IMG/VR virus record: IMGVR_UViG_3300022723_000207
Span: 32,001 to 96,000 of that record
Source: a virus
Length of the DNA: 64,000 nt
Reading direction: 5' to 3' (one strand)
Shown here: piece after piece, positions 20,300 to 55,843 of the stretch
Layout of the letters: each line of letters opens with the position of its first letter
How positions within the stretch are numbered: the stretch's first letter is position 1
The notes under the pieces: generated by a model
Database searches by the model: none
What the model saw: the letters and a program-made list of their open reading frames with translations, nothing else
Told to the model about the DNA's origin: nothing
Made by a program: the position numbers and the translations under genes

Positions 20300-21730
20300 A
20301 TGGAATTTGTACCGATAGCTTTAAAAGATTTGGCAGACAAATACCAAAATGGTAGTTCGCTGAGATCTTTAGCGAAAGAATTTGGAACATCTAAATTAAC
20401 TATAAAAAGGAAATTGCAAAAAGCGGGAATTCCTGTTTTGAGTTCTAAAGAATTTATACAAAACAATAAAGAAAAACATAGACGGCAGTCATCTAATAGA
20501 TATAATTACGATCAAAAAATATTTGATGATTACCATAAAGAAAATAAATCTATAAACCAGATAATTAATTTTTATGATGTATCTGAATCAAAAGTTCGTA
20601 GAATTATTGGCACTACAAGAATAATTGATGGTAATTACATAGCTTCTAGGTTTGCTGATATTTATAATGAAGTAAAGCCGGATTGGATTGATAGTGACAA
20701 TTTGTATAATTTATATTATAATGAAAAATGGTCTATTTCTGATATTGCCAAACATTACGGGTATGATGAAGAATCTATTAGACAAGCATTTATTAAATAT
20801 GGAATTAAAAGAAGGAGCACATCAGAAGCCACTTTTTTATGTAATAAAAATAAGAATTATGAGTCTGGATTAGAAGCAGTTGTTAAAAGAATATTAGATG
20901 ATAACAGCGTAAAATATGATAAAGTGATTTTTGGTGGTTATGAATTTGATTTTTTAATTGATAATAAACTATTATTGGAGATTAATGGTTTGTTTTATCA
21001 TTTAAATTGTGATAAGAAGGTTAAAAGAGATGAAGAAAAATATGAATATTGGCACAATAATCTTAGAGAAAAATATGACTTTAAAATATTATGGGAACAT
21101 TTCGCTGAGTCAGTTGGCTCTCTATATGATTTATTAAATAAGTGGATTGGTTTTAATAATGAATATATTGATAAAATCAATATAAGATTTGATAATATAT
21201 CATATAGCGAAGCTGATAATTTTTGTAAATCGTATCACTATCATAGAAAAACTAGAAAAGGTTGTTATTATGGCGCTTTTTATGATGGTGAAATGATCGG
21301 TGTTGCGGTGTTTTCATCGATAACTCGCAAGCAGTCTGCTGATAGATTAGGTGTTTTGACTACTCAAATCAAAGAACTAACTAGATTTTGTATTAATCCG
21401 CGTTTCAAATCTGATAATCTAGCATCGTTTTTGTTGGCAAAATTCGAAAAATTATTTAAAAAATATTCTAATAATACAACAATATTATTAACGTTTGCAG
21501 ATCAAACGACTGGTCATATAGGAACAGTGTATAAAGCATGTAATTGGATTCCTGATGGTGAAACAAAAGAATCTTATTACTATGAGAAAGGTGGCATGAG
21601 ATGGCACAAGAGAACCATATGGCAACATGCAAAGTCTTTAAAAATGAAAGAGATGGAGTTTGCATCGTTGTTTGGTATAAGTAGAGTTAACACTTTAAAG
21701 AAATATAGATTTATTAAGATGGTTAAGTAA
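20300..21730 (+). mobile_element. HTH + Vsr/DUF559-like endonuclease + Mom-like GNAT fusion (copy 1)
   Basis: Three HTH-like repeats; ESGLE...FDF...LEINGLFYH...LWEH; then YHY...YGAF...ELTRFC...NLAS...TFAD..GHIGTVYKACNW. Confidence 0.75.
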
Positions 21731-21739
21731 ATTTATTCT

Positions 21740-22321
21740 ATGAAACTGTCAGTTTTAAATGAAGGCGCTTGGGGTTATGGTCCTCTAGATAATGATGCTG
21801 CCTCTGATCGAAAATGGGAAATTGGTAGATCAGCAGTTGAAGGGCTATCAGATGATCTAATGAATAAATCTGATCCCAGAAAAATGTATCATGCTATTGG
21901 CTTGTGGCTTGATTTAGAGGATAGGCTGGAGACTAGACATTCATATTTAACTGATGATATTAAAGCTAAACATTTTGCATTAGCCAGAGAAGCAATCGAA
22001 TGGTTGCTTAATAATACTGGTGAACTCCATTATGATGAACCGTCAAAAGTAGAAAATATTCTCAAGCGGATGCAAGATTATATTGAATCTCAAGAGTTAG
22101 AGTTAGTTGAAAACATAGCACCTGATCACAAGGATATGCTTAAAAGCTTGTTCACTGATAACCCGATAATGTCCATGGCTTTAGAACCTAAAGAGGATAG
22201 TATTGAAGAATTAGAAGATGAAATTGGTGATGAAATAAGTCAGAAGTCATACGGTCAATCATCAAATTATCATCGTTTAAACACATATGGGAATGACGAT
22301 ATTAGGGGCAGCCAAAAATAA
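21740..22321 (+). CDS. DUF4259-like protein with an 8-aa N-terminal leader (possible internal head protein)
   Basis: MKLSVLNE|GAWGYGPLDNDAASD resembles the GAWG.GPFDND.A.D start of DUF4259. Confidence 0.55.
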   Translation: MKLSVLNEGAWGYGPLDNDAASDRKWEIGRSAVEGLSDDLMNKSDPRKMYHAIGLWLDLEDRLETRHSYLTDDIKAKHFALAREAIEWLLNNTGELHYDEPSKVENILKRMQDYIESQELELVENIAPDHKDMLKSLFTDNPIMSMALEPKEDSIEELEDEIGDEISQKSYGQSSNYHRLNTYGNDDIRGSQK

Positions 22322-22324
22322 AAT

Positions 22325-22753
22325 GTGGCCAATCCTATTGTAATTAAGAATCGTTTGTTGGTTATAGGTAATCGAGTACGTGTGCCTGGATTCGAGCCCC
22401 TATCTGAACAGACTACCAATAATTTATCTTTAGCGTTACAAGGTGCTAACACATTCATCGATTTGGATATCGCTTTAGATTTAATACCTGGATCTAGAGT
22501 AGTTGTTACGCATAATGGTGGCCCAACTGCTGGATCATTCGGGTTTGATAAATGGTTTGAGATTCCTAGTGGCCCCCCACCAAACGGGAACCAATGCCCA
22601 AATAATTGCATAAGGGACTCTTATAAGATATTACAAGACTATGCTCGTTCTTCATTATCCTCCTTACAGCAATCGACATTGGTGCAAGAGTGTAATAAAC
22701 TTGGCGAGTTTGGTCAGTGTGATTTTGATGAATTTGATAGGGGGCTTACATGA
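22325..22753 (+). CDS. hypothetical virion-associated protein
   Basis: In the neck gene cluster; late-promoter-like motif upstream. Confidence 0.55.
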   Translation: MANPIVIKNRLLVIGNRVRVPGFEPLSEQTTNNLSLALQGANTFIDLDIALDLIPGSRVVVTHNGGPTAGSFGFDKWFEIPSGPPPNGNQCPNNCIRDSYKILQDYARSSLSSLQQSTLVQECNKLGEFGQCDFDEFDRGLT

Positions 22754-23328
22754 GTGAGTTTCCAGAATACAGCAGTTTGGATCAGCAGCAGGATTTTAGA
22801 GATCCTGATGCGTCACAAATATCAATATTCGATCCAAATAATCCAGATATCGCGTTCATGGAGCGCGAAGCTTTTAATTATATTCATGAATCTGGCGCTC
22901 CAACTAAGATCTATCTAAGAACAAATGATTTAGGTAATGTCGATGAAGTATGGGAAGAAGATAATAACCCAATATACGATTTGCCTATCACTATTAAGGG
23001 CCAATTTGTTCCTGAGAAAATGAGTATGGCTCTCAATAAATTCGGTGTTGAAAATAATGCCCAATTTGAGATCCACTATTCGAGAGCAGAGCTATTTCAT
23101 ACCTTTAATACCAGAATGATTCGGTCTGGTGATATCATACAGATACCATATAATACATTAATTCAAACTCAGAATACAGAATTTATCGATGGTCAGTTTG
23201 GATTGGCAGATAAATTTAGGGTAATTAGTGCCACCGATACTGGTAATTTTAATTATCGATGGCTTTATTGGTCATGTACCGTTGAACTACTGACAGGCAA
23301 CTTTACTGTGAGGCCAGAGAATGGCTGA
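22750..23328 (+). CDS. gp14: neck/head-closure protein, gp14-like
   Basis: VWEEDNNPIY, LNKFGVE, IRSGDIIQIP; position between gp13 and gp15. Confidence 0.65.
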   Translation: MSEFPEYSSLDQQQDFRDPDASQISIFDPNNPDIAFMEREAFNYIHESGAPTKIYLRTNDLGNVDEVWEEDNNPIYDLPITIKGQFVPEKMSMALNKFGVENNAQFEIHYSRAELFHTFNTRMIRSGDIIQIPYNTLIQTQNTEFIDGQFGLADKFRVISATDTGNFNYRWLYWSCTVELLTGNFTVRPENG

Positions 23329-23590
23329 ATTGCGTACTAACTGGGATCTAGTTAAGCAGCAGATGTTAAATGAGACTTCTAAAGTCTTGCGTAATTTTGG
23401 TAGACGTGCCGTAAGTGATTTTGAAAATCGATTAAAAAAGAAAGGAGTAGACCCTACTAAAATGACTAAATCATCAGATGGAATTGCTTTTATTACTGAT
23501 GATCAACAAGAATATGAATCTGGTAAGGTTTATTTTAGTGAGGTTTATGAGGAAGTAAGCGACAAGAAGTGGCCGGAATCTATATTATGA
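23321..23590 (+). CDS. hypothetical protein
   Basis: 89-aa ORF overlapping both neighbours. Confidence 0.5.
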   Translation: MAELRTNWDLVKQQMLNETSKVLRNFGRRAVSDFENRLKKKGVDPTKMTKSSDGIAFITDDQQEYESGKVYFSEVYEEVSDKKWPESIL

Positions 23591-24528
23591 CAATCCATGA
23601 ATTTGACTTCCCTTCTTTTAATACTGGGCAGGAGGAACAGCAAAGTTTTGTTCCTAAACCTAAGATTGATAATGATTTGCCTGGAGAAAGAGAAACACCA
23701 ATTATAGATGATGTGGGTGATCCAGGTGCTCGTATAAATGATGAACGGAATTTAGAGGATTGTCAACCTTGCAGTTATGTTGATGAAGATAGAATTGATG
23801 TAAATTTTGTTGAGGATGTCAGAGAAACCTATCCGATTGGATTTAAGTTAATGGATAGGGGGATTAAGAACTATTTCTCTGGAATTAGGATACCTGTAGG
23901 TAGCGGTGCTGAACACTATACGATTTTACCAGTTCGTATTACGGCTGCTGACCCAGATACTCTGATTTATTCGGACCAGCACCTCCGTGGCGGCAGGATT
24001 GAATATCCATTTTTGGCGATCACTAGAACAGATGAAAGTTTTGATAATAAGCGTTATAGCCCGCCAATAAGGCCTATTTTTAGGCACATGTTAAAAAGCG
24101 GCAAAAAATCAGAGCTAGTTTATCGTCCAGCTCCTTATCTTATTGACTATACTTTAGACATAGTGGCGGAGCATAAGAGTGAAGCAGAATATGCTCTGTT
24201 TTCAATTATTGCTAAGTTAAATCCGATTGGGTCTTTCTTTTTAGAGGAGAGATCTATGGGTATGGCCCATGAGGTTATATTACATCCTGGAAGCAGTACT
24301 GATAATAGTGATCTAGAGACAGATGCTAATACTAGGCAGTATATTAGGAAAACGATTACTTTGAAGATGGAAGGTTGGTTGCCTACTCCGACTAAAGTTG
24401 TTCCCAATATATTGGCCAAGCCCTTGGCTATTAAAGAAGGTATTGGTCGCACACCTAGTGAAGTCAAAATTCCTGGAGAAACATTTGCTGTAATACGAGA
24501 TTCAGCTATCCCCCCAAGTGAGGATTAA
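23587..24528 (+). CDS. gp15: tail terminator / sheath stabiliser, gp15-like
   Basis: LPVRIT, YPFLAITR...D.KR, PAPY.I.YTL.I......A...I....NP. Confidence 0.65.
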   Translation: MTIHEFDFPSFNTGQEEQQSFVPKPKIDNDLPGERETPIIDDVGDPGARINDERNLEDCQPCSYVDEDRIDVNFVEDVRETYPIGFKLMDRGIKNYFSGIRIPVGSGAEHYTILPVRITAADPDTLIYSDQHLRGGRIEYPFLAITRTDESFDNKRYSPPIRPIFRHMLKSGKKSELVYRPAPYLIDYTLDIVAEHKSEAEYALFSIIAKLNPIGSFFLEERSMGMAHEVILHPGSSTDNSDLETDANTRQYIRKTITLKMEGWLPTPTKVVPNILAKPLAIKEGIGRTPSEVKIPGETFAVIRDSAIPPSED

Positions 24529-24529
24529 C

Positions 24530-24997
24530 ATGGTTCAACAAAAAGATAGACCCCTTACTGTTCGTGAGCTTCAGGCTCAGAAAAAACAAAAGAGAGAAGC
24601 AGAACAAAATAAAATCAGAATTCGTAACGTCACTAAGCTTCAACCTGTACCACTGCAACTATATGGCAAAGAATCAAAAGCTGCAGTCAATCAAATTACT
24701 ATTCATATTGGTCCTGGAAAATCTGTTGATTTACCTGAATATCGCTTAATTCCTGGTCAAATTATTAATCTTCGTAAGAAGAAATTAATTTCTACTACTA
24801 AGATGGGCGCGTCTGGTAAGACATTTAAAGATACAGACTACAAGCAATTTTTGCCTGCGGCGAAAAAAGCCCAAAAGGTTGATTTAACTAGATCTGGGAA
24901 GGGTGCCAAAGCGAGTTCAACTAAGGTCGAATCTAAAACCAATAAGTCTTCTAAAAAGAAGACTGATAAGATCACTAAGTCAGAACCGGCTGAATAG
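24530..24997 (+). CDS. basic hypothetical protein
   Basis: GAGGA RBS; Lys-rich C-terminus. Confidence 0.6.
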   Translation: MVQQKDRPLTVRELQAQKKQKREAEQNKIRIRNVTKLQPVPLQLYGKESKAAVNQITIHIGPGKSVDLPEYRLIPGQIINLRKKKLISTTKMGASGKTFKDTDYKQFLPAAKKAQKVDLTRSGKGAKASSTKVESKTNKSSKKKTDKITKSEPAE

Positions 24998-25037
24998 TGA
25001 CTTCAGCAAAAATATTATAAAGTTTACGGAGTAAGCG

Positions 25038-27905: not shown

Positions 27906-27915
27906 GGAGAAATAA

Positions 27916-28452: not shown

Positions 28453-28462
28453 CATAGTGTTT

Positions 28463-28493
28463 CTGATCCCCTCGCTTTTAGTGAGGGGATCAG
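28463..28493 (+). terminator. hairpin after the tail tube gene
   Basis: CTGATCCCCTCGCT-ttt-AGTGAGGGGATCAG, followed by TGTATT. Confidence 0.6.
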
Positions 28494-28526
28494 TGTATTC
28501 TGAAGTCTGTTGTTAGTAAATAGTGT

Positions 28527-29739: not shown

Positions 29740-29756
29740 TAATGCAAATATAACCT

Positions 29757-31364: not shown

Positions 31365-31376
31365 TTGGAGGCATCC

Positions 31377-32588
31377 ATGTTTGGATTCGATGACAAAATG
31401 ACTAGTCTGTTTTCTGTTAACGATGAGATTATCGTTGAACAGGATGATGATCAGAGGGATTGGACTAATATCCCAAATCCAAAGCCTGGAAAGACTCTTG
31501 ATGATCTAAAGGGTGTCAAGTTGCCTTTAGAGAGTGGTTGGACTGAAGAAGAATTAGTGTCTGCACTTAAGCCCACTTTAATCGCTGCTGCTCGCAAGTA
31601 TGATACTCCTAACTTTAGTCAGGATGAAGCTTTAATGGCGGCTATGGAAGGCATTTTTGACGCGATTAGGACTGATAAAGGAATTGCACCGTTTACAACG
31701 CACGTGTTTCCAGCTATTAAGAGTAAGACCATGCGTGCGGCAGCTGGTACGCGTGATTTTCCAACGTCCAATGTGTCTGGAGTTAAACCTCACGAAGGCG
31801 GTAAGACAGATTTCTTAAAAGGATCCAAAGCGACCGTTAGCGCAGATACGCCGGTAGATGATGAATCGGGCGGCGGATCTCATGTAGCCAGAATGTCTAG
31901 CGATGCTGACTCTGGTGAAAGAGCTGCTCAAGAACAGATGAATACAGTTAAATTGTTGAATAATTTGTTCTCTTCTGAGGAAGTTGGTCTTAATAAGCAA
32001 GAACAAGTGATCATGCGTGCTACGTATGGTATTAATGCTGATGGTGAGTATTCTGAAGCTGGTCCCAAGAGTACTGCAGAAATTGCCAAAGCATTTGGTG
32101 TTAGCAATGTTAGAATTTCTCAGGTGAGGAAAAAGGCACAACAGAAAATTAAGGACTATTTAGATAGTCGTGGACTGGGGTCACCAGAAGAGGCTATGGT
32201 TGCATTTGGTATTGAGGAAGCCAAACTGGTTGCTGCAGCCAAATTGGTTATTGAATCTATGGCCGAAATCATTGAGTTAAATATTGAGCTAATGCAGGAG
32301 CATCAAAACATTCCTGTTGATGTTGCTGTCAGTGGTGTAACTCGTCATGCCGTGGTCAAGATTAATTCAGACACATTTGAAGTGGATGACGTTGTAGCTG
32401 AAGGAAATGAAAGTGTCATGTATAACACTGACATGACGCAGATTGCGGAAGCTGTTGATCTAGCCAAGGCTAAATTGAGTCAAGGGTATTTTTCTGAGAC
32501 TGTTGCCACTATCGTTCAGATGCATGCTCAGCCAATACTTGGTGTAATTGGCCGATTAGAGGATGATGACGAAGAAACGGAAGATTAA
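31377..32588 (+). CDS. sigma70-family RNA polymerase sigma factor with terminal extensions
   Basis: Region 2: LIAAARKY...DEALMAAMEGIFDAI...PFTTHVFPAIKSKTMRA. VSADTPV. Region 4: LNKQEQVIMRATYG...STAEIAKAFGVSNVRISQVRKKAQQKIK. GGAGG RBS. Confidence 0.8.
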   Translation: MFGFDDKMTSLFSVNDEIIVEQDDDQRDWTNIPNPKPGKTLDDLKGVKLPLESGWTEEELVSALKPTLIAAARKYDTPNFSQDEALMAAMEGIFDAIRTDKGIAPFTTHVFPAIKSKTMRAAAGTRDFPTSNVSGVKPHEGGKTDFLKGSKATVSADTPVDDESGGGSHVARMSSDADSGERAAQEQMNTVKLLNNLFSSEEVGLNKQEQVIMRATYGINADGEYSEAGPKSTAEIAKAFGVSNVRISQVRKKAQQKIKDYLDSRGLGSPEEAMVAFGIEEAKLVAAAKLVIESMAEIIELNIELMQEHQNIPVDVAVSGVTRHAVVKINSDTFEVDDVVAEGNESVMYNTDMTQIAEAVDLAKAKLSQGYFSETVATIVQMHAQPILGVIGRLEDDDEETED

Positions 32589-32600
32589 TAGAATTTTCTA

Positions 32601-32627: not shown

Positions 32628-32644
32628 GGTGTATTTTATAAGCA

Positions 32645-34621: not shown

Positions 34622-34658
34622 ATAATTGACCATAAACAGTGTTTGCGTACATATAAGT

Positions 34659-36716
34659 ATGGGCACACAAACAATAGTAAAACCGTCTGAAGATTCAGAC
34701 ACTAAATCGTTTAACAAAAAAACTGAAGCGCCAAAGAAGCCAGGCCCACCGAAGAAAAAGAAGAACATGTACTTTGACAATGCGGCTGTTGAGCAGCTGC
34801 TTGATAGGTATGTGCGAAGAGGATGTGTGGATGTAGTATTGCGTGATGAGATTATGTCTCATGCGGAAGAGCTGATTAGACAAATTATTCGAGCCCACAA
34901 TTTTGAACATATTTTCCCAGGGCGAGACCAGTCATCCTTTGGTGAATTATTTCAAGTAGCTTGGATGCAGATTGAAAAAACTTTATATAAATATGATAAT
35001 GGACCTAATTCTCCCAAACTATTTAATATGTGGTGTGTTAAGCCAGACACCAGTATCTTCACAGAAGATGGTATTAAGAGTATATCAAATGCGATAAGCG
35101 ATAATAATATAAAGACTTATGGGTTAGATGGGATAACAGATATTGTTGATAGCGTGCGTAAAGACAGTAGAGTGGTTAATTCCATAACTACTGAATTGGG
35201 ATATGAAATCTCATGCACTCCTGAACATTTGTTGTACAAGCTTGGATCTGACGGCCCAGAATGGGTCAAATCATGCAATATTAAAGATGATGATCTAATT
35301 GGTATACAATATAACCAAAATACGTTTATTGATGATAATAAAGTTGATTTCAATGATAATAAATGGTCAGTTGATGAGATAACTGAAGAATTAGGCTATA
35401 TCATTGGTTTATATATTTCAGAAGGCTGTATTGGTAATAATTGCGTGATGATTTACAATATTGATAGTGAAGTAATTAATAAACTTTTAGATAATGATTT
35501 AGGATTGTCATGCAAGCATTATCCTGATAGACAAGCTGTGCACATACATAATGCTGGGTTTGTTAAGTTTATGGAATCCATTGGACTTGGTGGTTTGAAG
35601 GCTAGTGCCAAGATTGTTCCTGATATTGTCTTAAGATCGTCAAGAAATGTTGTTATATCAGTCATTAAGGGTATGTTTGATGGTGATGGACATTCATCTA
35701 GACATAATGGCTGCGTAGGGTATACTTCTGCTTCTGCAGCCTTAATAAAACAGGTGAGAATGTTATTGTTGAATCTTGGCATCTTATCTAAGATTAGTAG
35801 AGACAACAGGATTATTAGGAAATTTAAGGTAAAGGATAAGAAAGAATACACTAGCATTCTTACTGGTAGCATGCAGATCAGTCTGTCATCATTCGACTCC
35901 CTTAAATATTATGAAATAATTGGGTTTGAAATAGTAAGGAAACAGATAAATGTTAGTAATTTGAAAAATATTAGGGTTTTAAGGTATGGTCTTACGGCCA
36001 AGATTAATGAATTATGTGAAGATAATGGTATTTCTAGCCGATCGTCTGGATTAAGGTCTGCTAGAAATTCAAAGACTGGCTTATGTGATATTAATGAAAC
36101 GGGCAAAAAATTAGCTCTATTAGATGTTAATGAGGATGATCGCAATTTATGTTTTTTGGTTGATAGATTATCGGAAGAAATGAGCAAACATGATAGAGTT
36201 GTTTGGTTGCCAGTTAAATCAATTGAACAATCAGAGTCTGAAGTCTGTGAAATACAGGTATCATCAGAATATAGTTCATATATAGCTAATGGATTTATAT
36301 CGCATAATAGTCAAATTGCTAAGACTAGAATATTGGCATATTTGAAGAAGGAGAAACGCGATAAGAAAAATATGCCATCCTATCGTGATTGGATGCAGCG
36401 TAGGTACAAGACTAAATCACGATCAATTGAAGATTTTGAAGAATTTCTAAGTGAACTTGAACAGTTATGTGATTACGATGATGATTTTTCTGGATTAACA
36501 ATGATAATGAGGAAATTATGGCTTGAAGACGATAAACCTTATGATGGTTTTAAAGCTAAATTGCAGAGATTATCTGGCAAAGACATGAATGTTATTAATC
36601 AATTTTTGAGATTGATTAGATTACACAGAGACGAATTTTCGGCTAATGTATTCGATATGAGGGATTTTGATTACAAGGATGATGGCGGCTATTTCTATAA
36701 CGATCACGATGAATAA
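34659..36716 (+). CDS. gp55: gp55-like late-transcription sigma factor precursor containing an intein
   Basis: KKNMYFDN...NF...YKYD...PKLFNMW|SQIAKTRILAYLKKEKR parallels gp55 HYVNN...NF...NPFAYFTQI...F..RI.KEK; about 260-aa extein. Confidence 0.7.
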   Translation: MGTQTIVKPSEDSDTKSFNKKTEAPKKPGPPKKKKNMYFDNAAVEQLLDRYVRRGCVDVVLRDEIMSHAEELIRQIIRAHNFEHIFPGRDQSSFGELFQVAWMQIEKTLYKYDNGPNSPKLFNMWCVKPDTSIFTEDGIKSISNAISDNNIKTYGLDGITDIVDSVRKDSRVVNSITTELGYEISCTPEHLLYKLGSDGPEWVKSCNIKDDDLIGIQYNQNTFIDDNKVDFNDNKWSVDEITEELGYIIGLYISEGCIGNNCVMIYNIDSEVINKLLDNDLGLSCKHYPDRQAVHIHNAGFVKFMESIGLGGLKASAKIVPDIVLRSSRNVVISVIKGMFDGDGHSSRHNGCVGYTSASAALIKQVRMLLLNLGILSKISRDNRIIRKFKVKDKKEYTSILTGSMQISLSSFDSLKYYEIIGFEIVRKQINVSNLKNIRVLRYGLTAKINELCEDNGISSRSSGLRSARNSKTGLCDINETGKKLALLDVNEDDRNLCFLVDRLSEEMSKHDRVVWLPVKSIEQSESEVCEIQVSSEYSSYIANGFISHNSQIAKTRILAYLKKEKRDKKNMPSYRDWMQRRYKTKSRSIEDFEEFLSELEQLCDYDDDFSGLTMIMRKLWLEDDKPYDGFKAKLQRLSGKDMNVINQFLRLIRLHRDEFSANVFDMRDFDYKDDGGYFYNDHDE
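35034..36308 (+). mobile_element. intein with LAGLIDADG homing endonuclease (425 aa)
   Basis: Starts CVKPDT; block B CTPEH; IGLYISEG and IKGMFDGDG; ends SSYIANGFISHN followed by Ser +1. Confidence 0.92.
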
Positions 36717-36726
36717 AATATAACAC

Positions 36727-37278: not shown

Positions 37279-37894
37279 CCCAGAACTTTCTGGTCTTCTT
37301 AATGAAATAGAAGATGCGGAAGGTGATGCTAGCAAGGCCCAGCTTGAAGAGGATATTGATGATCCTCAAAAAACTGAGATGGAAAAAGATGCAGAAGCGT
37401 CTGCTAGCTTAGAGATTGATGCTGAAGAGAATGATATTGATGATTTTAATTCTTTGGAAGATGATTTTGAAGAGGATGGCAATGATGATTTTGAAGCTCA
37501 AGTGGAATATGAAGCTGAGGTAGTAGAAGTAGACCAAGAAAAAGAGCGAATTGAGAAGAATATTATAGGGCTGCTGGATCAGCATTGTGATAGTGCTAAA
37601 GCAATGTTTGAAGAAGCAGAAGTTGACCGTCGTAGGATTGATGATGTGGTTGCCATATTGCTCCCTAAAATAGAGGGTGATGACTATCGCGGGTCGGATA
37701 TTATGGCATTGGCTAATTTAATTCAGACTAAGGCAGACATTAGTAAAAATAGAGCATCTAATATGGATTCTATTGCCAAATTGTTTGCAGCACTGAAGAA
37801 TAATGATCGGATTGCACCGAATGCTGGCGGTTCTGGCGATGATGACCTCTCAAATGAAGAGATAGCTGTGCTATTGGGTAAGAGAGATGCATGA
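37262..37894 (+). CDS. acidic helical protein, possible terminase small subunit
   Basis: AGGAGG + GTG; the call rests on position upstream of TerL only. Confidence 0.35.
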   Translation: MSEEIDPELSGLLNEIEDAEGDASKAQLEEDIDDPQKTEMEKDAEASASLEIDAEENDIDDFNSLEDDFEEDGNDDFEAQVEYEAEVVEVDQEKERIEKNIIGLLDQHCDSAKAMFEEAEVDRRRIDDVVAILLPKIEGDDYRGSDIMALANLIQTKADISKNRASNMDSIAKLFAALKNNDRIAPNAGGSGDDDLSNEEIAVLLGKRDA

Positions 37895-39317
37895 ATTTAT
37901 AGAAAAAGCTGTCGGAGTGCATGGTCATAATTGTGATTATTCTGAAGTCGATTATGTAAATTCATACACTCCAGTTAAGATAATATGCAAGAAACATGGT
38001 TATTTTTTCCAGAAACCATCTGAACATTTAAGGAGTAAGTATTCGTGTCCAGAATGCAGAAAGTATTCGGTTCGTAATCTACTAAAAAGAAGTTATAATG
38101 AATTTTTAGAGAAATCGATAAAATTGTATGGAAGCGATTATGAATATAAAGAAGAATGGTATGGTGATAAGAGGTCTAAAGTATACTGTAAAGTGCATGG
38201 TGTAGTTAGTATTAATAATAGGACGTTTTTAGAGGGAATGGGATGCCCTAAGTGTGGATATGACAGGTCACATAGTAGTAGAGTGCTATCCACGTCTGAA
38301 TTTGTTGATAGGGCCGTTAAGGTTCACGGCCATAAGTACGACTACACCAATGTCGATTACAGTCATAATAAGATAAATGTTGGGATAAGATGTCAAAAAC
38401 ATGGGGTGTTTTACCAAGAGCCGAATAATCATTTAGAGGGCAAAGGGTGCCCCAAGTGTTCTTTCATTGTTACTAAATTTCACGATGATGTGCAGAAGTT
38501 TATTAAGAGTATTGGGATTGGTTTTAAATCAAATGATAGGAAATCAATTGACCCATATGAAATAGATATATTGTGTGATGGCAATATTGGCATTGAGTGT
38601 CATGGATTATTTTGGCATTCGTATGATAAACCAGAGACGAAAGAGGAAAGATTTCGCCATTATGATAAATATGATTTGGCCACCAAAAACGGTGTTAGTC
38701 TTATTCAGATATACGAAAATGAATGGAAGTACAAGAATGAAATAATTAAGTCTGTTTTATCTTGCAAATTTGGCAAAAATGGTACTATTGGTGCTAGAAA
38801 GTGCACAGTTGTTGAGTTGTCATTTAATGACTATCATAAATTTATGGATGCTAATCATATACAGGGTTCCACTAATAATTGTAGCGTTAGATATGGATTA
38901 ATTTATGGTGGTAAAATAGTATCTTGTATTGGTTTTAACAGGCATTTTAGGTATGGGTGGGAGATATCTAGGTTCGCCAGTTTGCTTTGGTTTAATGTTA
39001 TTGGTGGTTTTAGTAAATTATTCAGAAGATTTATAACTGATTATAACCCAAATACTGTATTGACATATTCTGATCGACGTTACTTTAGTGGTGATATATA
39101 TCGTAGTAATGGTTTTATTTACGATGGCGTTACAGCTCCTGGTTTTTGTTATACTGATAAATTTACAGTTTACCCTAGGCAGAAATTTCAGAAACACAAA
39201 TTGCCTGGTATATTAATAAATTTTAATAAATCATTGACTGGCCCTGAGAATATGTTTGTTAATGGGTATAGAAGAATATGGGATGCTGGTAATCATAGGC
39301 TATTATGGCGGGCTTAA
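37887..39317 (+). mobile_element. Hef-like homing endonuclease gene
   Basis: Repeated Y.Y....Y...C..HG.F...P..HL...CP.C modules; EIDI...GIECHGLFWHS...IYENEW; then GARKC, NHIQG, WEISRFA, GGFSKL, TYSDRRY, RIWDAG. Confidence 0.75.
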
Positions 39318-41224
39318 CTAAAAATCAGAAAATAATGGTGTTAAGAAGATGCAAGAAGTCTTTTCAGTACTTCTGTGAGAATTTTTGCAAAATTAAACAT
39401 CCTAATGCTGGAATTATTCCATTTAAACTGTTTAAGTATCAGAAGAAGTCTATTAAGGCATTTAAGAAGTATGATAGAGTAATTTATCGTAAATGCCGCC
39501 AGTCTGGAATATCAACACTCACTGGTGCCTATGCACTTTGGTTGGCGATGTTTCATCCGAACCGCAAAGTATTGATAGTATCCAAAAGAGATGAGGATGC
39601 CATTGGATATCTTAATAGAAATGTAAAATTTGTTTTTGAATATCTTCCTGAGTGGATGCATGCTATTTTTGGTGATCCACGATCAGGCAAGTCTAGAAAA
39701 TACGCTCCTCCTAAGACCTATAACGAGCACACCATTGAATTCTTTCATGGTTCGGATATCAAATCATTAACTAGCTCTAAAGATACTTTGCGGTCCAACA
39801 CTGCTTCTCTTGTTATTATCGATGAAGCTGCATTTATTGATTATATGGAAGAGATGTGGACTGCTGGTCAGCCTACCCTGATGCATGGTGGTCGTGTTAT
39901 TGTGATTTCTACTACTAATGGTAAAGGCAATTGGTATCACAATACATGGGAAGATGCGGTTGCTAATACTAACGGGTTTTATCCAATCCAGATTCCGTGG
40001 TGGAATATGGATTGGGTTATTGAATGGTATGATGAATTAGCTGGAAAACGTATTCGTTTAGCACCTTGCGATGGGATCGAAAAGTGCATTTCTAGAGAAG
40101 ATAAGCTGAGATTTGGCAAGTTCAAGAGCCCCTGGCTTGAGCAGCAATATCGTGAGCTACAAGAAAATGGTGAAGCTTGGAAGTTCCGTCAAGAAATTCT
40201 GATGGAATTTATTGGCGCAGGCAATACAGTATTGAGTCAAGAAGCTTTGCTTACTCTAGAGAATCAGATTAATAATGATTATAAAGTGATGAAAAAATCA
40301 ATAGCTTATAACAATGATAATGCTAACATTAATGGTTATATTTTAGATTTTAATGATGGATTACATATTTGGGAAAGACCAGTTAGAAAGACTCAAGATA
40401 TAATTAATGCTATTGGTAGAGTTGTAACACCAGGAAATCCAGGTAATAAATATAGTTTAGGGGCTGACATATCTTCTGGTGAGGCTACTGACTATTCATC
40501 TATTGTCATTATTGATGCTACTGTTAGAAGACAGGTAGCAGAATTGAAAATTAAATGTGATACCTCAGATTTTGCCAAAATGATCGACTTTTTAGGTAGG
40601 TATTATAACAATGCTTTGGTAGTCGTTGAAAATACTGGAATCGGTAAGCCAGTGGCACAGGATCTGAAGAGGATGTATTATTATCCTAATCTGTACTATC
40701 GCAGATTGCCATCTGGCAAGAAAGATAAGAAACCAGGTTTTCCAACTACAAATGCCAGTAAGCCAGATATTGTTAAGGCTTTAACAGATAATATGGGTAT
40801 TGAAGATGATGGTGTTCTATTTAAATCCGCTAGATTGGCTAAAGAAGCTAATTCATTTATTCATCTTGGTGGCGGCAGAGTTGGCAATGAGCCTGGGACC
40901 AATAATAATGATGACTTAATGATCGCTGCTGGCTTGGCATGCATAGGCATCATGGATGCATTAGAGACACCAGACGGTTTGATACCTACTACATCAAGGC
41001 ATGTTGAAGCTCATATGGAAGAGCGAATCGAAATGACTCTTGATGATGCGCTGACTAAGGGTGGTCGAGAGTTGATGTTTCCGATTGCTGTAGGATCTGA
41101 TCCATCTACCATTATGAATGTGGAAGATGAGGTCAACAATTTTATTAATCAGATGGGTGGAGGTAGGACACCAGACCAGAAAGCGGTAATGCCCGCTACC
41201 AGTAGTAAGAAATATTTCCAATGA
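39305..41224 (+). CDS. terL: terminase large subunit
   Basis: KCRQSGIST (Walker A), IIDEAAFI (Walker B), ISTTNG, FRQE, GADISSG, VENTGIG, NDDLMIA. Confidence 0.95.
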   Translation: MAGLTKNQKIMVLRRCKKSFQYFCENFCKIKHPNAGIIPFKLFKYQKKSIKAFKKYDRVIYRKCRQSGISTLTGAYALWLAMFHPNRKVLIVSKRDEDAIGYLNRNVKFVFEYLPEWMHAIFGDPRSGKSRKYAPPKTYNEHTIEFFHGSDIKSLTSSKDTLRSNTASLVIIDEAAFIDYMEEMWTAGQPTLMHGGRVIVISTTNGKGNWYHNTWEDAVANTNGFYPIQIPWWNMDWVIEWYDELAGKRIRLAPCDGIEKCISREDKLRFGKFKSPWLEQQYRELQENGEAWKFRQEILMEFIGAGNTVLSQEALLTLENQINNDYKVMKKSIAYNNDNANINGYILDFNDGLHIWERPVRKTQDIINAIGRVVTPGNPGNKYSLGADISSGEATDYSSIVIIDATVRRQVAELKIKCDTSDFAKMIDFLGRYYNNALVVVENTGIGKPVAQDLKRMYYYPNLYYRRLPSGKKDKKPGFPTTNASKPDIVKALTDNMGIEDDGVLFKSARLAKEANSFIHLGGGRVGNEPGTNNNDDLMIAAGLACIGIMDALETPDGLIPTTSRHVEAHMEERIEMTLDDALTKGGRELMFPIAVGSDPSTIMNVEDEVNNFINQMGGGRTPDQKAVMPATSSKKYFQ

Positions 41225-42534
41225 TAGACTGGGAAATCACAAGAAGAAAGTTTAATATTAGCACTGTGGATGGCTATAGACCTAAGGTAGTAGTAAGATG
41301 CGATAAGTGTGGCAAAATAAATGATTTAACAATAAGAGTAAAGTCTAAAGTAATAGACAATAATATTAATTGGATTTGCCATAAGTGTGTTGGTAGTCGC
41401 TCAGAAGTTAGATCTAAACTTAGTAAGTCTACGTCTAAAAAATGGGAAAGTCAAGAGTACAAAAATGAAAGAATACTAAATAGTAAACAACTATGGTCTA
41501 GTCCTGAATTTATCCGCAAGCATCAAGAGTCAGTCAATTCACTTGCTAGTAGAAAGAAATGCTCAGAAGCTGCGGTTAATGCTTGGAAGAATGAGCAATA
41601 CAGAGAACGTCATGCAGTTGCTCTAACTGAGCAGTTTAACAAAATACCATCAACAGAAGTGAATGTCATAGCCATATTAGATGGGTTAGGTGTTGACTAT
41701 GTTCACCAATACGCGGTTGGCCCTTACACTTTTGACTTTTTGATTGAAGATTATTTGTTAATTGAAATTAATGGAAATTATTGGCATACTAGGCCAAATG
41801 TCATTAGGAAAGATAGAGCCAAAGAGTCGTATATTTCTCAAATAAACAAGTACAAGTATAAGGTATTGTGGGAATCACAACTATCTGATGTTGATAAAGT
41901 TATATCATTATTTAAACATTGGATCGGTATTGAGGATGTTAAAGCTAAATCTATTATTCTTAAAGATTTAGAATTTAAATTAGTTTTAGAACCAGAATAT
42001 AAGAAGTTTTTTGGGTGTTATCATTATTTGGGAGGGGCTGGAAGGGCTGGTACAGCAGTCGGCGCATATTTGCGAGATGAGCTGGTGTGTTGCGCTTTAT
42101 TTGCTCATCCAACGAGGCGTGAGACTTACCATAGGTTAAAGTTATCCAAAAATCAATGTTTGGAGCTGACAAGACTTGCTACATCGCCCTTTTATACAAA
42201 CAGTAATTTATGTTCATATTCTATGAAGATGTTTATCAAACTAATATATGGAGAATATAGTGATTTAGCCTGCCTGATTGCTTTTTCAGATCCAATTGAG
42301 GGTCATAATGGAACTGTTTATAAGGCTAGCAATTGGCAATTTGATGGATTTACTGCTAGTTCTTATTATTATGTCAATGGCGATGGTTGGAAGATGCATA
42401 AGAAAACTTTATGGAATAAAGCTAAAGGGATGCATTTGAAAGAAAAAGAATTTGCTGATAAGTTTGGCTACAAGATGGTTAGAACACCACCATTACGTAG
42501 GTTTTTGTATTATTTAGGTAAATATAGAGCATGA
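41221..42534 (+). mobile_element. Zn ribbon/NUMOD3-like + Vsr/DUF559-like endonuclease + Mom-like GNAT fusion (copy 2)
   Basis: PSTE...GPYTFDF...IEINGNYWH...LWE; YHYLG...GAY...ELTRL...NL.S...AFSD..GHNGTVYKASNW...GWKMHKKTLW. Confidence 0.75.
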
Positions 42535-44213: not shown

Positions 44214-44265
44214 ACTTTGGTAGCATCAAACGCAAAAATACTCTAAGAATGCAGGGGAATACCTA

Positions 44266-46884: not shown

Positions 46885-46889
46885 GAGCA

Positions 46890-47573: not shown

Positions 47574-47598
47574 GCAAAAATCAGTCGGAGATACAATA

Positions 47599-49011: not shown

Positions 49012-49036
49012 TAACTAAGTCAAAGTAGATCTATTT

Positions 49037-49065
49037 GAGCCCCACTATATGTGGGGCTTTATTTT
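49037..49065 (+). terminator. intrinsic terminator
   Basis: GAGCCCCAC-tatat-GTGGGGCTT followed by TATTTT. Confidence 0.7.
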
Positions 49066-49099
49066 GGGAAAATTTCTATTAAAAGAGGTGGAGAATTAA

Positions 49100-49477
49100 A
49101 TGCCTGCTAAAAGTAAAGATCAAGCTACGGCTGCTAAAATTGCTCTTCAAATTAAGAAAGGGAAACAAAAGGCTAAGTCAGGAACGGCTTCTGCTCAAAT
49201 GGCCAAAAATATGACTAAAAAACAACTGAGAGATTTTACCAAGAAGGAGTCTCTAAAATTAGTTGACGATGTAATGGTCGAGCATGGTGGTCAAATGTTT
49301 ACAATCAAGGCTGGCACGATTTTCGAGACCGTTGGAACTGGCGCAGTCGCAATGATTCCGACTGCCTTGGGTTCTGACAAAGAAGATTATGATGACGACG
49401 AAGACGACGACGAAGAAGAGGAAGAGGTTGAGGAAGCTTCTAACTCTCAGATGTCGGAATTGAATCTAGATTATTGA
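49100..49477 (+). CDS. DUF3008-like protein with an acidic tail
   Basis: MPAKSKDQATAA..AL..KKG...AS..M...MT.KQL.DF. Confidence 0.6.
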   Translation: MPAKSKDQATAAKIALQIKKGKQKAKSGTASAQMAKNMTKKQLRDFTKKESLKLVDDVMVEHGGQMFTIKAGTIFETVGTGAVAMIPTALGSDKEDYDDDEDDDEEEEEVEEASNSQMSELNLDY

Positions 49478-50072
49478 TATAAATCATGTTCTTAAAATAG
49501 TGATCGATGAACATCTCTTTTTCGCGGGAATACTGTTCATCATATAAATATATTTCGTTGATTACGGCGTCAAACTCATACATGGCTATTGTGTATCCCA
49601 AGACGAATTGAAATCCTAGATCAGTTAATATTGCCTGTAGTTTATTATTGTGCTTCTTATAATGCGCACGGCTTCCAAGTATTTTCCCGCGATATTCTGG
49701 GTCTTGCCATTTACGCTTTAATCCTTCGCTTACCATCTCGCGATATTTTGGATTTTGCCATTTTTTCTTACTTCGTTTTTTAGCTCGCTCGCGATTATTG
49801 TGATCAGCATAATAATCCTTAACGCTCTGGCTAATTTTATTGGCATTATGGATGTTATTGAGGGTCGCCCTTTGGCTCATTCTCTCTTTTACGTTAGGAT
49901 CTGAAAGAGCTGCTTTAGAGCGTCGGCTTTGTTCTTTACGATAGGTACTAGATTGGGTTCGTATTCTTATTTTGCATTTTCGACATACGAACTCTTCAAG
50001 ATCATGTTTCTTAAACCATGCCTCTTTGAACTCATAGTCCACATTGCATTTGTTGCATTTTGCGGTTGGCAT
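49440..50072 (-). CDS. Zn ribbon/NUMOD3-like protein with a degenerate Vsr-like nuclease remnant
   Basis: CNKC..CRKC, KKWQNPKYRE/RKWQDPEYRG repeats, YEFDAVI but no E..G.YWH. Confidence 0.55.
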   Translation of the reverse strand: MPTAKCNKCNVDYEFKEAWFKKHDLEEFVCRKCKIRIRTQSSTYRKEQSRRSKAALSDPNVKERMSQRATLNNIHNANKISQSVKDYYADHNNRERAKKRSKKKWQNPKYREMVSEGLKRKWQDPEYRGKILGSRAHYKKHNNKLQAILTDLGFQFVLGYTIAMYEFDAVINEIYLYDEQYSREKEMFIDHYFKNMIYINNLDSIPTSES

Positions 50073-50190
50073 CTTCTAAATATATTTACTTTAATCATTA
50101 AATAGATTGATTATTCGTCAATATAATTCCTCCCAAACGTAATTATAAGGAATCCCCATTTCCGGGCACCCTTAAGAGGAAATATTAATT

Positions 50191-50931: not shown

Positions 50932-50968
50932 GTCTTACTCTCTCACAATAACCAAGGAATGATCGACT

Positions 50969-52483: not shown

Positions 52484-52511
52484 TTAGGAAATCTACCGTC
52501 CACAGAATTTC

Positions 52512-52543
52512 AAAAAAACCTCGCCATTGTGCGAGGTTTTTTT
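52512..52543 (+). terminator. bidirectional intrinsic terminator after the capsid gene
   Basis: AAAAAAACCTCGC-cattgt-GCGAGGTTTTTTT. Confidence 0.9.
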
Positions 52544-52574
52544 GTATATATATAATTAAGACGGAGAATTTTCG

Positions 52575-53396
52575 ATGGCCAGTTTACTTAAACCAAATCA
52601 ATGTCTTAAATGTGACAATAAAGAAAATTTTATTCATCTTAGAAAGCCAGAAAGATGGGCATGCGGCAACTGTGATGAAGTAATAGTGCAAAGGCCAGGA
52701 AGAGGAGAATCTGGAGTATGCAGGGATTGTGGTGCCAAAAAAGAAGATGGAGTCCAATTTAAAAAGAATAAAAATCAGTGCATGGAATGTTATGCAATTT
52801 ATCAAAACAAGTATAGAGAAAAAAGGAAAGATGATTTAAATTCTAATAAGAGGAGATGGTATGCTGATAATCAGAAAGAACTTAGGATTAGAGCTAGAGA
52901 TTATGTTCAGCAGTCTCCAGAAAGATTTTTAATAGATCTGGCTAGAAGAACTAGGCACACAGCGCAAAAGAGAAAAAAAGAAAAAGCTGAATATAACATA
53001 GAACACAAAGACCTTCAAGAAATTTATGATTCTAAGAATGGTCTATGCAATATAACTGGATTGAAAATGAAACATGAATATGGGTCATTATATTCAATAT
53101 CTGTTGATCGCATAGACTCTGATAAAGGGTACATCAAAGGTAACGTTCAATTAGTTTGTAAAGGTGCTAATTTTCTCAAGAACAAGCACACACAAGAAGA
53201 GACGCTTAAGTTTTTAGACGACTATTTTGAAGCGAGAGCTGGCAGTAATGTCCTTAAATATGTAAAATCCAGAGAAAGACGATTTCATGAATGTGATTGC
53301 GGCAGAATAGTAACAGATGATGAATGGGACAGTGATGGCAATTGGTGTAACAATTGTCTAGAAAGATATTGGGAAGAAAAAGATAATCAGTATTAA
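52575..53396 (+). CDS. HNH (beta-beta-alpha-Me)-type endonuclease with Zn fingers, likely mobile
   Basis: GLCNITG...SVDRIDSDKGYIKGNVQLVCKGANFLKN; several CxxC. Confidence 0.75.
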   Translation: MASLLKPNQCLKCDNKENFIHLRKPERWACGNCDEVIVQRPGRGESGVCRDCGAKKEDGVQFKKNKNQCMECYAIYQNKYREKRKDDLNSNKRRWYADNQKELRIRARDYVQQSPERFLIDLARRTRHTAQKRKKEKAEYNIEHKDLQEIYDSKNGLCNITGLKMKHEYGSLYSISVDRIDSDKGYIKGNVQLVCKGANFLKNKHTQEETLKFLDDYFEARAGSNVLKYVKSRERRFHECDCGRIVTDDEWDSDGNWCNNCLERYWEEKDNQY

Positions 53397-53425
53397 TCAT
53401 AAATAGCAAATTGTTATAGATTAAT

Positions 53426-54292
53426 ATGATAGAAAGTTTTGTGTTGAAAAAAGGTGTTCTTGGCAACAGGATTTATTCTGTAGTTAATGATATTAATGAG
53501 TCATCTTGTAGTTTTAGTGGCCACAGGTATTATCAAGAAAAGTTTTTAGAACACATAATAAACAATAAATTTTCTAAGATTTCATCACCTACTGGCAGTG
53601 GCAAGAGTAAAGTTATTTTGGCTGCTGCTGCTTATTTTTATAAGATTGGTATTTCTACAATTATTGCTGTCCCTAAAATGTGCATTACTAACAATTTTTG
53701 TAATGAAACTAATCATGGGAAGTTTGTTGTTAATACTTCTAAATTAGAATTAATTTTGCCATCTTTATCAGTGATTCAAGAATACCAAAATAAAAAGGAT
53801 AATGTAAGAAAAATATTGAAATCGGTTGGGCCTCATGTGATTGTGTGTTCTTATGATGTTTTATGTAGTTGTGTTGATTTAATTGATGATCGTTTTTTAG
53901 TTGTTATTGATGAAGCACATCATTTAGCATCTGGAATTAACAATATCGGTAAAGCTGTTGATTCTATATGTCATACTGGAGTTAAAGATTCTAATGATTT
54001 CTTTGATGCCATTAACGCAGCATTTTACAAGGTGCATAGCTACAAATTTTTGGAAGATGAAACATTTGAGGAAGCTTTGGTATCAGAACTGGAATCACAG
54101 GGAATACCACATGAAGACATTGAAATAGCAGTCAATGCATTAGAAAAGGTAAGAAAAGAATACACTTCTGGTAAAAAGAATGAAAATGCTGTTGGCTGGC
54201 CAGAAGACATGGATGGCATTAAACAAGTCACTCAAGATCCACATGATAAACCAGTCAGTGACACTAATAATAACATGCAGAAGATTCATTAA
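53426..54292 (+). CDS. truncated SF2 helicase (first RecA domain only) with an unrelated acidic C-terminus
   Basis: YQEK, SPTGSGKS, IIAVP, VIDEAHH; motifs III-VI absent. Confidence 0.6.
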   Translation: MIESFVLKKGVLGNRIYSVVNDINESSCSFSGHRYYQEKFLEHIINNKFSKISSPTGSGKSKVILAAAAYFYKIGISTIIAVPKMCITNNFCNETNHGKFVVNTSKLELILPSLSVIQEYQNKKDNVRKILKSVGPHVIVCSYDVLCSCVDLIDDRFLVVIDEAHHLASGINNIGKAVDSICHTGVKDSNDFFDAINAAFYKVHSYKFLEDETFEEALVSELESQGIPHEDIEIAVNALEKVRKEYTSGKKNENAVGWPEDMDGIKQVTQDPHDKPVSDTNNNMQKIH

Positions 54293-54329
54293 TGTGTCAA
54301 ACTTGTAAGAGACACTCGGTCGAAGGATC

Positions 54330-54363
54330 AAAAGAACCCCGCCGTTGTGCGGGGTTCTTTTTT
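54330..54363 (+). terminator. bidirectional intrinsic terminator
   Basis: AAAAGAACCCCGC-cgttgt-GCGGGGTTCTTTTTT. Confidence 0.9.
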
Positions 54364-54382
54364 ATATAAAATATGACTTGTT

Positions 54383-55843
54383 ATGGAACAAGAATTATCA
54401 GATAAGATAACAAATTTATTTAATGATGGGTTAACCCATCAAGAAATTGGTGATACTATTGGCAAGCCTCGCAGGACAGTAATGAAGCTGTGTGGGAAAC
54501 TTGGGTTAAAAAGATCCAGAGCAGAGGCTGCATCGTTAAAAACTAAGTCTCCTCTAGATGATCCTGAGATAATTAAATTCATAAGGAACAACAGAAATTC
54601 TTTGTCGTTAGAGGAGATAGCCAAAACATATAACTCATCTATAAGCTCAGTTCAGAGAATATGTGATAAATATGAGATTATTTTAGATAAAAAGAGATTT
54701 GTAAAATCTCAGTCTACTAAAATGAAAAATGCTTGGGACGATAATAAAAAAGAGAAAGCTAGAGATAAAAGTTTAAAATTGGTTACGCCAGAACTGAAAC
54801 AGAAACTTTCTGATGGATCTAGGAAACTGTGGAGTAACAACGATTATAGAGAAAAGCAGGTAAAGATTCAGACAGAAATATGGAATAAGCCAGAAAACAG
54901 GAAAAGGTTAGCTTTATGGAGGGCCAACCAAAGTGGCAGGTTGTCGTCAATACAGAAAATTTTATATTCTATCCTAGATGATTTAGGAATTAAATATTTT
55001 AAAGAAGGCAACCATACTGATAAAGAGTGCATTATTGGTCCCTACAATTTTGATTGTGTAATTCCTAGACCCAATGATAGAGATTTAGTTATTGAATGCC
55101 AAGGTGATTATTGGCACACTCAGGATAAAGCGATAAGAATTGATAAATCTAAGGCAACTTATTTGGAGAAATATTGTTCCAACACACATGAATTGAAATA
55201 TTTATGGGAACATGAATTTGCTTGCCAAAATAGGATTGGTGAACTGATAAAATATTGGACTGGATTAACTGATAACCAAATTGAAAATTTTGATTTTGGT
55301 GATCTGGACATAAAAAGATCAAAAGCTGAAGAATACAAACTGTTGCTATCAAAGTATCATTATTTGCCAAATGCAGGTAAAGGTGGAATGGCTTATGGAG
55401 CTTATTTTGGTGATGAATTGATTGCTGTATGTGTGTTTTCCAAGTTGGTCAGGCAAAATATTGAGATTGATGGGTTTAATAAAAATGAAGTAATTGAATT
55501 ATCTCGTCTTTGTATCCATCCAAATTATCAAAAGAAAAATCTTGCTAGTTGGTTTGTTAGTAGGTGCATTAAAAAGTTAGATGTTTCAATTAAGTGTATC
55601 GTTAGTTACTGTGATACCACTCATAATCATGATGGGGCTATTTATAAATCACTAAATTTTGTTAATGATAAAGAGGTAAGACCAGATTATTGGTATACTA
55701 ATGAGAATGGGTGGGTGATGCATAAAAAGACTTTGTATAATAAGGCTGTTAAAATGAACATTGTAGAATCTGAGTATGCCAACAAATTTGGGTATAAAAA
55801 GATATTTGGATCCAAAAAATTGAGATTTGTGTTTAAAAGATAA
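54383..55843 (+). mobile_element. HTH + Vsr/DUF559-like endonuclease + Mom-like GNAT fusion (copy 3)
   Basis: SSIQ...GPYNFDC...IECQGDYWH...LWEHE; YHYL...YGAY...ELSRLC...NLASW...SYCD..HDGAIYKSLNF...GWVMHKKTLY. Confidence 0.75.

Follow-up and report, generated by a model that had tools for sequence, protein, structure and literature searches.

Nuclease–Mom fusion genes in an uncultured T4-like jumbo phage: candidate homing endonucleases of the Hef family with a Mom-type domain

Fusion genes and related open reading frames in the window

A stretch of viral DNA of 64,000 nucleotides (positions 32,001 to 96,000 of the IMG/VR virus record IMGVR_UViG_3300022723_000207) contains three open reading frames with a common plan: a DNA-binding N-terminal region, a Vsr-like nuclease and a C-terminal domain related to the DNA modification protein Mom of phage Mu. 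The open reading frames are termed MomF1, MomF2 and MomF3, and the entire stretch of 64,000 nucleotides is termed the window. Locations and amino acid (aa) positions of the domains are as follows (HTH, helix-turn-helix):

20300..21730, + strand: MomF1, 476 aa; two HTH modules at aa ~1–185, nuclease at ~186–275, Mom-family domain at ~295–476
41221..42534, + strand: MomF2, 437 aa; Zn ribbon and W-containing helical repeats at aa ~1–140, nuclease at ~141–232, Mom domain at ~257–437
54383..55843, + strand: MomF3, 486 aa; HTH modules at aa ~1–195, nuclease at ~196–290, Mom domain at ~309–486

An earlier interpretation made from the DNA letters only (termed here the sequence-only reading) had described three diverged paralogues with variable DNA-binding modules. 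The present analysis agrees with this. The open reading frames are present on the + strand, they display a pairwise identity of 28%–33%, and the motifs that were quoted for them can be aligned. HTH modules are found in the loci at 20300 and 54383, and a Zn ribbon with W-containing helical repeats in that at 41221. Pfam shows N-terminal HTH matches in two of the three paralogues (HTH_28/HTH_7 in MomF1, Sigma70_r4 in MomF3), and MomF3 also matches Acetyltransf_1. The PHROGs labels obtained are “Mom-like DNA modification protein” and, for full-length matches, “homing endonuclease”. MomF3 matches phrog_3339 (“homing endonuclease”) over its full length with an E-value of 8e-19, and the two “homing endonuclease” PHROGs 3339 and 559 are matched by the Mom fusions across both the nuclease and the Mom domain.

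Three further open reading frames in the window are related to the fusions:

37887..39317, + strand: Hef-like homing endonuclease, 476 aa; DUF723/treble-clef Zn repeats, EDxHD nuclease and a divergent Mom-like domain
10321..11340, − strand: nuclease-only relative, 339 aa; Zn ribbon and helical repeats, an intact EDxHD nuclease and no Mom domain
49440..50072, − strand: shortened family member, 210 aa; Zn ribbon, W..P(E/K)YR repeats and the first nuclease motif only (YEFD)

The nuclease-only relative had been noticed in the sequence-only reading, and both the alignment and a match of the family profile to its nuclease part (E = 2e-18) show it to be real. The shortened open reading frame has a weak profile match (E = 0.0015) and no Pfam match; blastp relates it to MomF2, MomF3 and the nuclease-only gene, and the sequence-only reading had overlooked it. 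Judged by its sequence, it is probably a decaying copy.

The window is part of a 153-kb record with an estimated completeness of about 42%. Nearly all of its genes are on the + strand, and T4-like products are encoded, i.e. a baseplate wedge protein, tail sheath, helicase, large terminase (TerL), portal and major head proteins. Related contigs are up to 320–395 kb in size, and a megablast search with 24 kb of the window against the phage collection gave zero matches. Thus the source is an uncultured T4-like jumbo phage without a close cultured relative. Related loci (given L numbers below) were collected with the portal, major capsid protein (MCP) and gp13-like genes as queries; a TerL query in viral contigs gave relatives of just 27% identity. 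Searches of the window for tRNA genes and Rfam families found none, and there are therefore no group I introns in it.

Conservation of the nuclease and Mom-type domains

The sequence-only reading placed a Vsr-like nuclease in the middle of the proteins, and this assignment holds by both sequence and fold. The homing endonuclease I-Bth0305I (PDB 3r3p) matches the nuclease region in a phmmer search of PDB sequences (E = 0.03). In a Foldseek search, the AlphaFold (AF2) model of MomF2 matches 3r3p with a target TM-score (TMt) of 0.81 and 27%–29% identity, second to the Mom structure described below and ahead of ordinary GNATs. Pfam gives weak mid-protein matches to REase_MTES_1575 (Vsr-like) in MomF2 and MomF3 only; for the MomF1 nuclease the assignment comes from a phmmer match to 3r3p together with the alignment of the shared motifs; its motif residues are E192, D217, H234, D244 and K247. 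At the first E of the EDxHD motif, MomF3 has Gln, and MomF1 and MomF2 keep the E. Hef-type endonucleases were placed in the Vsr-like EDxHD family by Taylor et al. (2011) (PMC3239194), who also showed that I-Bth0305I cuts beside its own insertion site.

The C-terminal domain had been likened to the GNAT fold of Mom, and three lines of evidence bear this out. The Pfam Mom family (PF25680, curated gathering threshold 27.1 bits) matches MomF1, MomF2 and MomF3 with scores of 98.3, 76.2 and 66.0 bits (E = 6e-28, 4e-21 and 5e-18). A phmmer search of PDB sequences shows a match of the C-domain to Mu Mom (8bv8). The AlphaFold model of MomF2 (predicted local distance difference test score, pLDDT, of 94) has 8bv8 as its best PDB match (Foldseek E = 4e-10, 190 aligned columns, TMt 0.65–0.70).

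Mu Mom modifies adenine at N6 with Gly-tRNA(Gly) as donor; it is a dimer that requires W48 for dimerisation, its essential residues have been defined, and its C-terminal HTH-like insertion, which is also essential, has been placed by modelling in the major groove of DNA (Silva et al. 2026, PMC13219725). The earlier expectation of an acyl-CoA pocket is therefore outdated, and the presence of such a pocket was set aside as a test of the domain. Of the essential or important Mu residues H58, Y59, R111, S124, D149, R151 and Y159, six are kept in the paralogues and R151 differs. In MomF1 the equivalents are H313, Y314, R362, S376, D401 and Y411, with T403 at the position of R151; the R151 equivalent is Thr in MomF1, Ile in MomF2 and Thr in MomF3. 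A conserved tail, HK.T..A..E.E.A, had been seen as an element that follows the C-domain. The motif is real, but it is not a separate element: the Pfam Mom match extends to profile positions 177–185 of 202, the tail aligns to Mu Mom residues ~182 onward, and it makes up the C-terminal portion of the Mom domain, in the region of the Mu HTH-like insertion (residues ~175–209). Sequence and model together indicate that the C-domain truly belongs to the Mom family of GNAT folds and includes the HTH-like insertion specific to Mom.

The fusion is found in a very large number of phage proteins. With clusters formed at 50% identity, a full HMMER scan with a nuclease+Mom profile gave 470 representatives with E-values below 1e-30 and 2772 with E-values below 1e-10. 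The complete nuclease+Mom module is at the C-terminus in nearly all of the top 150, and the N-termini vary widely in length. Residues were counted in 152 diverged family members that are less than 50% identical to one another, with the following results:

nuclease D/E/H/D/K: 151/143/148/151/150 of 152
Mom H58 equivalent: 151/152
Mom Y59 equivalent: 150/152
Mom R111 equivalent: 150/152
Mom S124 equivalent: 137 S and 14 T of 152
Mom D149 equivalent: 152/152
Mom Y159 equivalent: 151/152
Mom R151 equivalent: Thr in 132/152

The nuclease thus has the character of the EDxHD/Vsr-like group, i.e. a fold match to 3r3p and D, H and D residues that are invariant or nearly so, together with an additional E and K. 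In the Mom domain there is a new invariant His, five residues C-terminal to the D149 equivalent. Comparisons of orthologues show identities of 65% for the Mom domain versus 63%–72% for the nuclease, 49% versus 55%, and 53% versus 48%, whereas the N-termini diverge. On these sequence comparisons the Mom domain is constrained as strongly as the nuclease and is an integral part of the enzyme.

The same His is present in stand-alone Mom-like proteins of phage phiEf11 and Arthrobacter phage Martha, where R151 is replaced by Asp or Val. Thus the loss of R151 and the presence of the His (a D....H variant) are not special to the nuclease fusions. A tblastn search with MomF1 gave matches limited to stand-alone Mom-like genes. 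In phiEf11 (L122, 990–2106), Martha (L123, 768–2136) and Microbacterium phages, such genes come immediately after a gene with a ParB-like nuclease domain or are separated from its end by one small gene; this association in phages of Gram-positive bacteria is a two-gene echo of the nuclease–Mom pairing. No stand-alone Mom gene was seen in the 153-kb record.

The Hef-like gene at 37887, for which the sequence-only reading had suggested a related C-domain, extends the relationship further. It matches phrog_559 with an E-value of 6e-102, and 939 phage records match, many of them annotated as Hef-like or homing endonuclease. Its Mom-like domain retains H324, R362, S376, D396, R398 and Y405, and R151 is mostly retained in the Hef-like clade. 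Pfam Mom does not match the 37887 protein at E ≤ 0.1; some of its homologues do have a precomputed PF25680 match. An hhalign comparison of a profile of 37 Hef-like homologues with the nuclease and Mom region of the paralogues gave a probability of 99.7% (E = 2.9e-26, 271 columns) and covers both domains, and 8bv8 is also the top PDB match of the AlphaFold model of the 37887 protein in Foldseek. These results show that enzymes of the Hef family have a nuclease with a Mom-like domain as their standard core. Within the family, the three paralogues form a subfamily in which the Mom domain is better preserved and the DNA-binding heads are different.

Occupied and empty sites in related phages

The sequence-only reading noted that most of these genes are located between or next to conserved genes and proposed a check of the same loci in relatives. 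MomF2 provides the clearest example. It lies between the TerL and portal genes, and the junctions are compact: the MomF2 start codon overlaps the TerL stop codon (ATGA), and the MomF2 stop codon overlaps the portal start codon (also ATGA). TerL and portal lie side by side, 44–411 bp apart, in 18 of 21 relatives. The junction is empty in the two closest relatives, L022 (portal 80% identical) and L006 (69%), and an orthologue with 49% identity is present at the exact junction in the more distant L008–L010 (three filled sites). L038 and L049 have partial copies of MomF2 immediately 5′ of portal.

The conserved genes at this site are themselves interrupted in many relatives. The portal gene has an interruption of ~1.0–1.2 kb at residue ~83–90 or ~209 in L023, L024, L025, L027 and L034, and the TerL gene one of ~0.4 kb near residue 57–66 in L012, L013, L019, L023 and L027. 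These are presumably introns or inteins; the copies in the window are uninterrupted.

At the MomF1 site, next to a gp13-like gene, orthologues with 59%–61% identity occur in L003 as well as in L004 and L005, which are nearly identical to each other. L118, L119 and L121 have an empty site, with the next conserved gene immediately after the gp13-like gene. A 193-aa open reading frame (21740–22321, + strand) with no family match travels with the MomF1 insertion; it is missing in L118, L119 and L121 and also in L004, and in L003 only its last 64 residues are found, followed by a Hef-like gene on the opposite strand.

MomF3 is not present at the post-MCP site of the closest relative, L037 (MCP 94% identical), which has HTH-only genes there; MomF3-like genes occur at two other positions in L027. 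The other family members are patchy as well. The Hef-like gene is missing 5′ of TerL in L006 and L022, and Hef-like genes are found at yet other places in L003–L005. The nuclease-only gene is missing in L003, where the two flanking glycosyltransferase genes abut.

Empty sites are therefore found at all three loci, and the genes are not a fixed, vertically inherited set. They are mobile and patchy, and they occupy fixed intergenic sites. The family genes are also AT-rich, as had been noted earlier: the guanine plus cytosine content is 0.28 for MomF1, 0.34 for MomF2, 0.32 for MomF3, 0.34 for the Hef-like gene and 0.31 for the nuclease-only gene, versus 0.39 for the window. The AT-richness, the empty sites in some relatives and the adjacency of TerL and portal in most of them show behavior of mobile, free-standing homing endonuclease genes. 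The pattern is that of such genes which invade, persist, decay and are lost, and the shortened copy at 49440–50072 fits this cycle of gain, decay and loss. A recent internal duplication as the origin of the three paralogues was rejected, each being nearer to copies in other phages than to its neighbors; MomF2, for example, is 49% identical to the L008 copy but ~33% identical to MomF1 and MomF3.

Other possible mobile elements are present in the window. An open reading frame straight after the major head gene (52575–53396, + strand, guanine plus cytosine content 0.34) matches PHROG families of endonuclease, endonuclease VII and HNH proteins (E = 3e-23) and is probably another mobile nuclease. 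Directly 5′ of MomF3 is a 288-aa open reading frame (53426–54292, + strand, guanine plus cytosine content 0.32) that has only the N-terminal DEAD/ResIII domain of a helicase and may be a gene fragment. The idea that MomF3 splits a helicase gene was dropped, as a downstream search for the helicase C-terminal half was empty. Two genes contain LAGLIDADG inteins. One is a 960-aa glycosyltransferase (7447–10329, + strand) with the intein at aa ~549–887 (Intein_splicing, PT-HINT and LAGLIDADG_3 matches); its homologue in L003 has intein matches too. The other is a 696-aa open reading frame (34626–36716, + strand) with the intein at aa ~147–561. It is intein-free in L006, L008, L015, L022, L023 and L024, in which residues ~47–146 and ~562–679 match contiguously, and L012, L013 and L027 match the protein through the intein region.

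Role of the Mom domain and comparison with known systems

The explanation favored here is that MomF1–3 and the Hef-like, nuclease-only and shortened copies belong to the Hef/EDxHD type of free-standing homing endonuclease genes, with the Mom domain as a putative active, self-marking transferase. Taken as a whole, this explanation can be accepted or doubted with equal ease, and its parts differ in strength. The genes are very probably mobile homing endonucleases. The odds that the Mom domain is catalytically active on DNA are evenly balanced, and a specifically self-protective role is possible but somewhat doubtful. The most explicit form, an active, site-directed DNA adenine aminoacyl/acyl transferase that marks the recognition site of the enzyme in the carrier genome, is offered tentatively and is rather unlikely.

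In the proposed process the variable N-terminal HTH or Zn-ribbon/helical-repeat modules would select a long target in or beside a conserved gene. The Vsr-like nuclease would cleave the gene-less allele of a co-infecting relative, and recombinational repair would then copy the gene into the cleaved site. These steps are drawn by analogy with the family; homing by Hef of phage U5 has reportedly been shown experimentally by others. The Mom domain may mark an adenine in the recognition site of its own enzyme, probably with an aminoacyl-tRNA as donor as in Mu, and the marked carrier genome would escape its own nuclease. The near-invariance of the residues that are catalytic in Mu favors an active transferase. 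If this is true, the selfish nuclease would have an epigenetic immunity instead of the usual sequence change in the target site, and the conserved Thr/His active-site variant would point to a donor or a chemistry unlike that of Mu Mom.

Several points weigh against this explanation. The R151 residue, essential in Mu, is Thr, Ile and Thr in the paralogues and Thr in most of the family, and the chemistry may differ or be lost. The dimer residue W48 of Mu Mom shows no conservation in the paralogues. In about one quarter of the Hef-like members that have the C-terminal domain, the S124, D149 and R151 equivalents vary (S to G in 13, D to N in 18, R to D in 10), which is consistent with a role other than catalysis for at least some members of the wider family. 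The three loci with a MomF1 orthologue represent only two lineages (L003; L004/L005), and in the more distant one its identity is about that of the neighborhood; the MomF1 copy may be in part vertically inherited. The cleavage site, the target and homing itself are here argued from the family. Finally, a modifier bound at its site would meet the allele of a rival as readily as its own, and discrimination of self from non-self is thus a problem for marking.

A different possibility is that the genes are homing endonucleases whose Mom-derived domain transfers nothing and has become a DNA-binding, base-flipping or dimerisation module. It would aid recognition of the target or would pair two nicking Vsr-like domains for a double-strand break. 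This has some appeal, since Mu R151 is replaced by Thr or Ile and since part of the Hef-like clade shows decay of the catalytic equivalents but keeps those of R111, H58 and Y159. It is also in keeping with a dimeric Mu Mom whose HTH-like insertion is modelled in the major groove (PMC13219725), with the dimerisation that I-Bth0305I requires for cutting both strands (PMC3239194), and with the existence of nuclease-only members, for which the Mom part is dispensable. However, in the subfamily of the three paralogues the S124 (S or T in 151/152), R111, D149, H58, Y59 and Y159 equivalents are nearly invariant among sequences less than 50% identical, which exceeds what binding usually demands. The D....H variant without R151 also occurs in the stand-alone phiEf11 and Martha proteins, and the dimerisation residue of Mu Mom, W48, is unconserved. 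A domain that transfers nothing is therefore a doubtful prospect, though a serious one. The fusions might alternatively be single-chain conflict systems of the restriction-modification type, with homing secondary: the Mom domain would momylate the phage genome broadly, and the nuclease would degrade unmodified DNA of the host or of superinfecting phages. Precisely such a fusion in jumbo phages is the subject of a published prediction (Iyer et al. 2021, PMC7824862), both domains are conserved, the fusions would be the sole sources of Mom in a 153-kb record that lacks a visible stand-alone gene, and stand-alone Mom-like genes elsewhere adjoin ParB-like nuclease genes. This reading fits the conservation of the domains but not the site-specific patchiness. 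There are three to six diverged copies with different sequence-reading N-termini, they are intergenic and patchy at the same junctions in relatives, and the paralogues are nearer to same-site copies in distant phages than to their neighbors, as the MomF2 comparison shows. These are the signature of site-specific homing and not of a core defense gene, and the family members Hef and I-Bth0305I have been shown elsewhere to be homing endonucleases. A general restriction-modification role is thus improbable.

As annotation, the genes of the window are further members of a very large, previously described phage gene family. The Hef family is said to have been described in 2005. The fusion and the cut-and-protect idea, the Hef family, the EDxHD family (2011), and the chemistry and structure of Mom are already known. 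In the literature searched, no experimental test of the Mom domain in Hef-type nucleases was found. A notable point is that a domain related to DNA hypermodification is kept under nuclease-level constraint in hundreds of diverged homing endonucleases. If the Mom domain modifies the target site, selfish nucleases would have a novel means of leaving their carrier unharmed, and the family would also supply adenine-modifying enzymes that are directed by sequence. If its role is limited to DNA binding, it offers a clear example of an enzyme fold that was taken over for recognition. For either case the window is convenient material, as it has three intact, diverged copies with different DNA-binding heads, and defined empty-site alleles are available in relatives.

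Four known systems are comparable. Hef of phage U5 and the Hef-like enzymes of T4-related, ViI-like (LIMEstone F-LimIII, VII, VIII and X), Campylobacter, Klebsiella and jumbo phages form the family of which gene 37887 is a member. Like these, the three Mom fusions have a complete nuclease and Mom-like module, are free-standing between conserved genes, occur in several copies per genome and are patchy in distribution. Unlike them, the fusions have N-termini made of HTH or single Zn-ribbon/helical repeats and not DUF723 Zn-repeat arrays. They are also much closer to Pfam Mom (66–98 bits) than is the Hef-like protein at 37887, which has no Pfam match, and they mostly have Thr at the position where Mu Mom and most Hef-like proteins have R151. 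With I-Bth0305I (3r3p) the nuclease of the fusions shares the E, D, H and D motif residues and the fold, but I-Bth0305I is encoded in an intron, its N-terminal motifs are of the NUMOD/HTH type, and the nuclease is its last domain, with no Mom domain.

Mu Mom (8bv8) is the best PDB match of the C-domain by sequence and by fold; the six residue equivalents and the HTH-like insertion are present in both. In contrast to Mu Mom, the domain in the paralogues is fused behind a nuclease and DNA-binding modules, has Thr or Ile in place of R151 and an invariant His five residues after D149, and is missing W48 and the basic N-terminal tail; the identity is 18%–19%. The closest published description is that of the Mom-REase fusions of jumbo phages by Iyer, Anantharaman, Krishnan, Burroughs and Aravind (2021; Viruses 13:63; PMC7824862), in which both the fusion and the cut-and-protect idea were put forward as a prediction. 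The architecture is the same, and the proposal is the one made in the sequence-only reading. That paper makes no mention of homing, Hef, Vsr or DUF723, whereas in the window and its relatives the genes are patchy, site-specific insertions.

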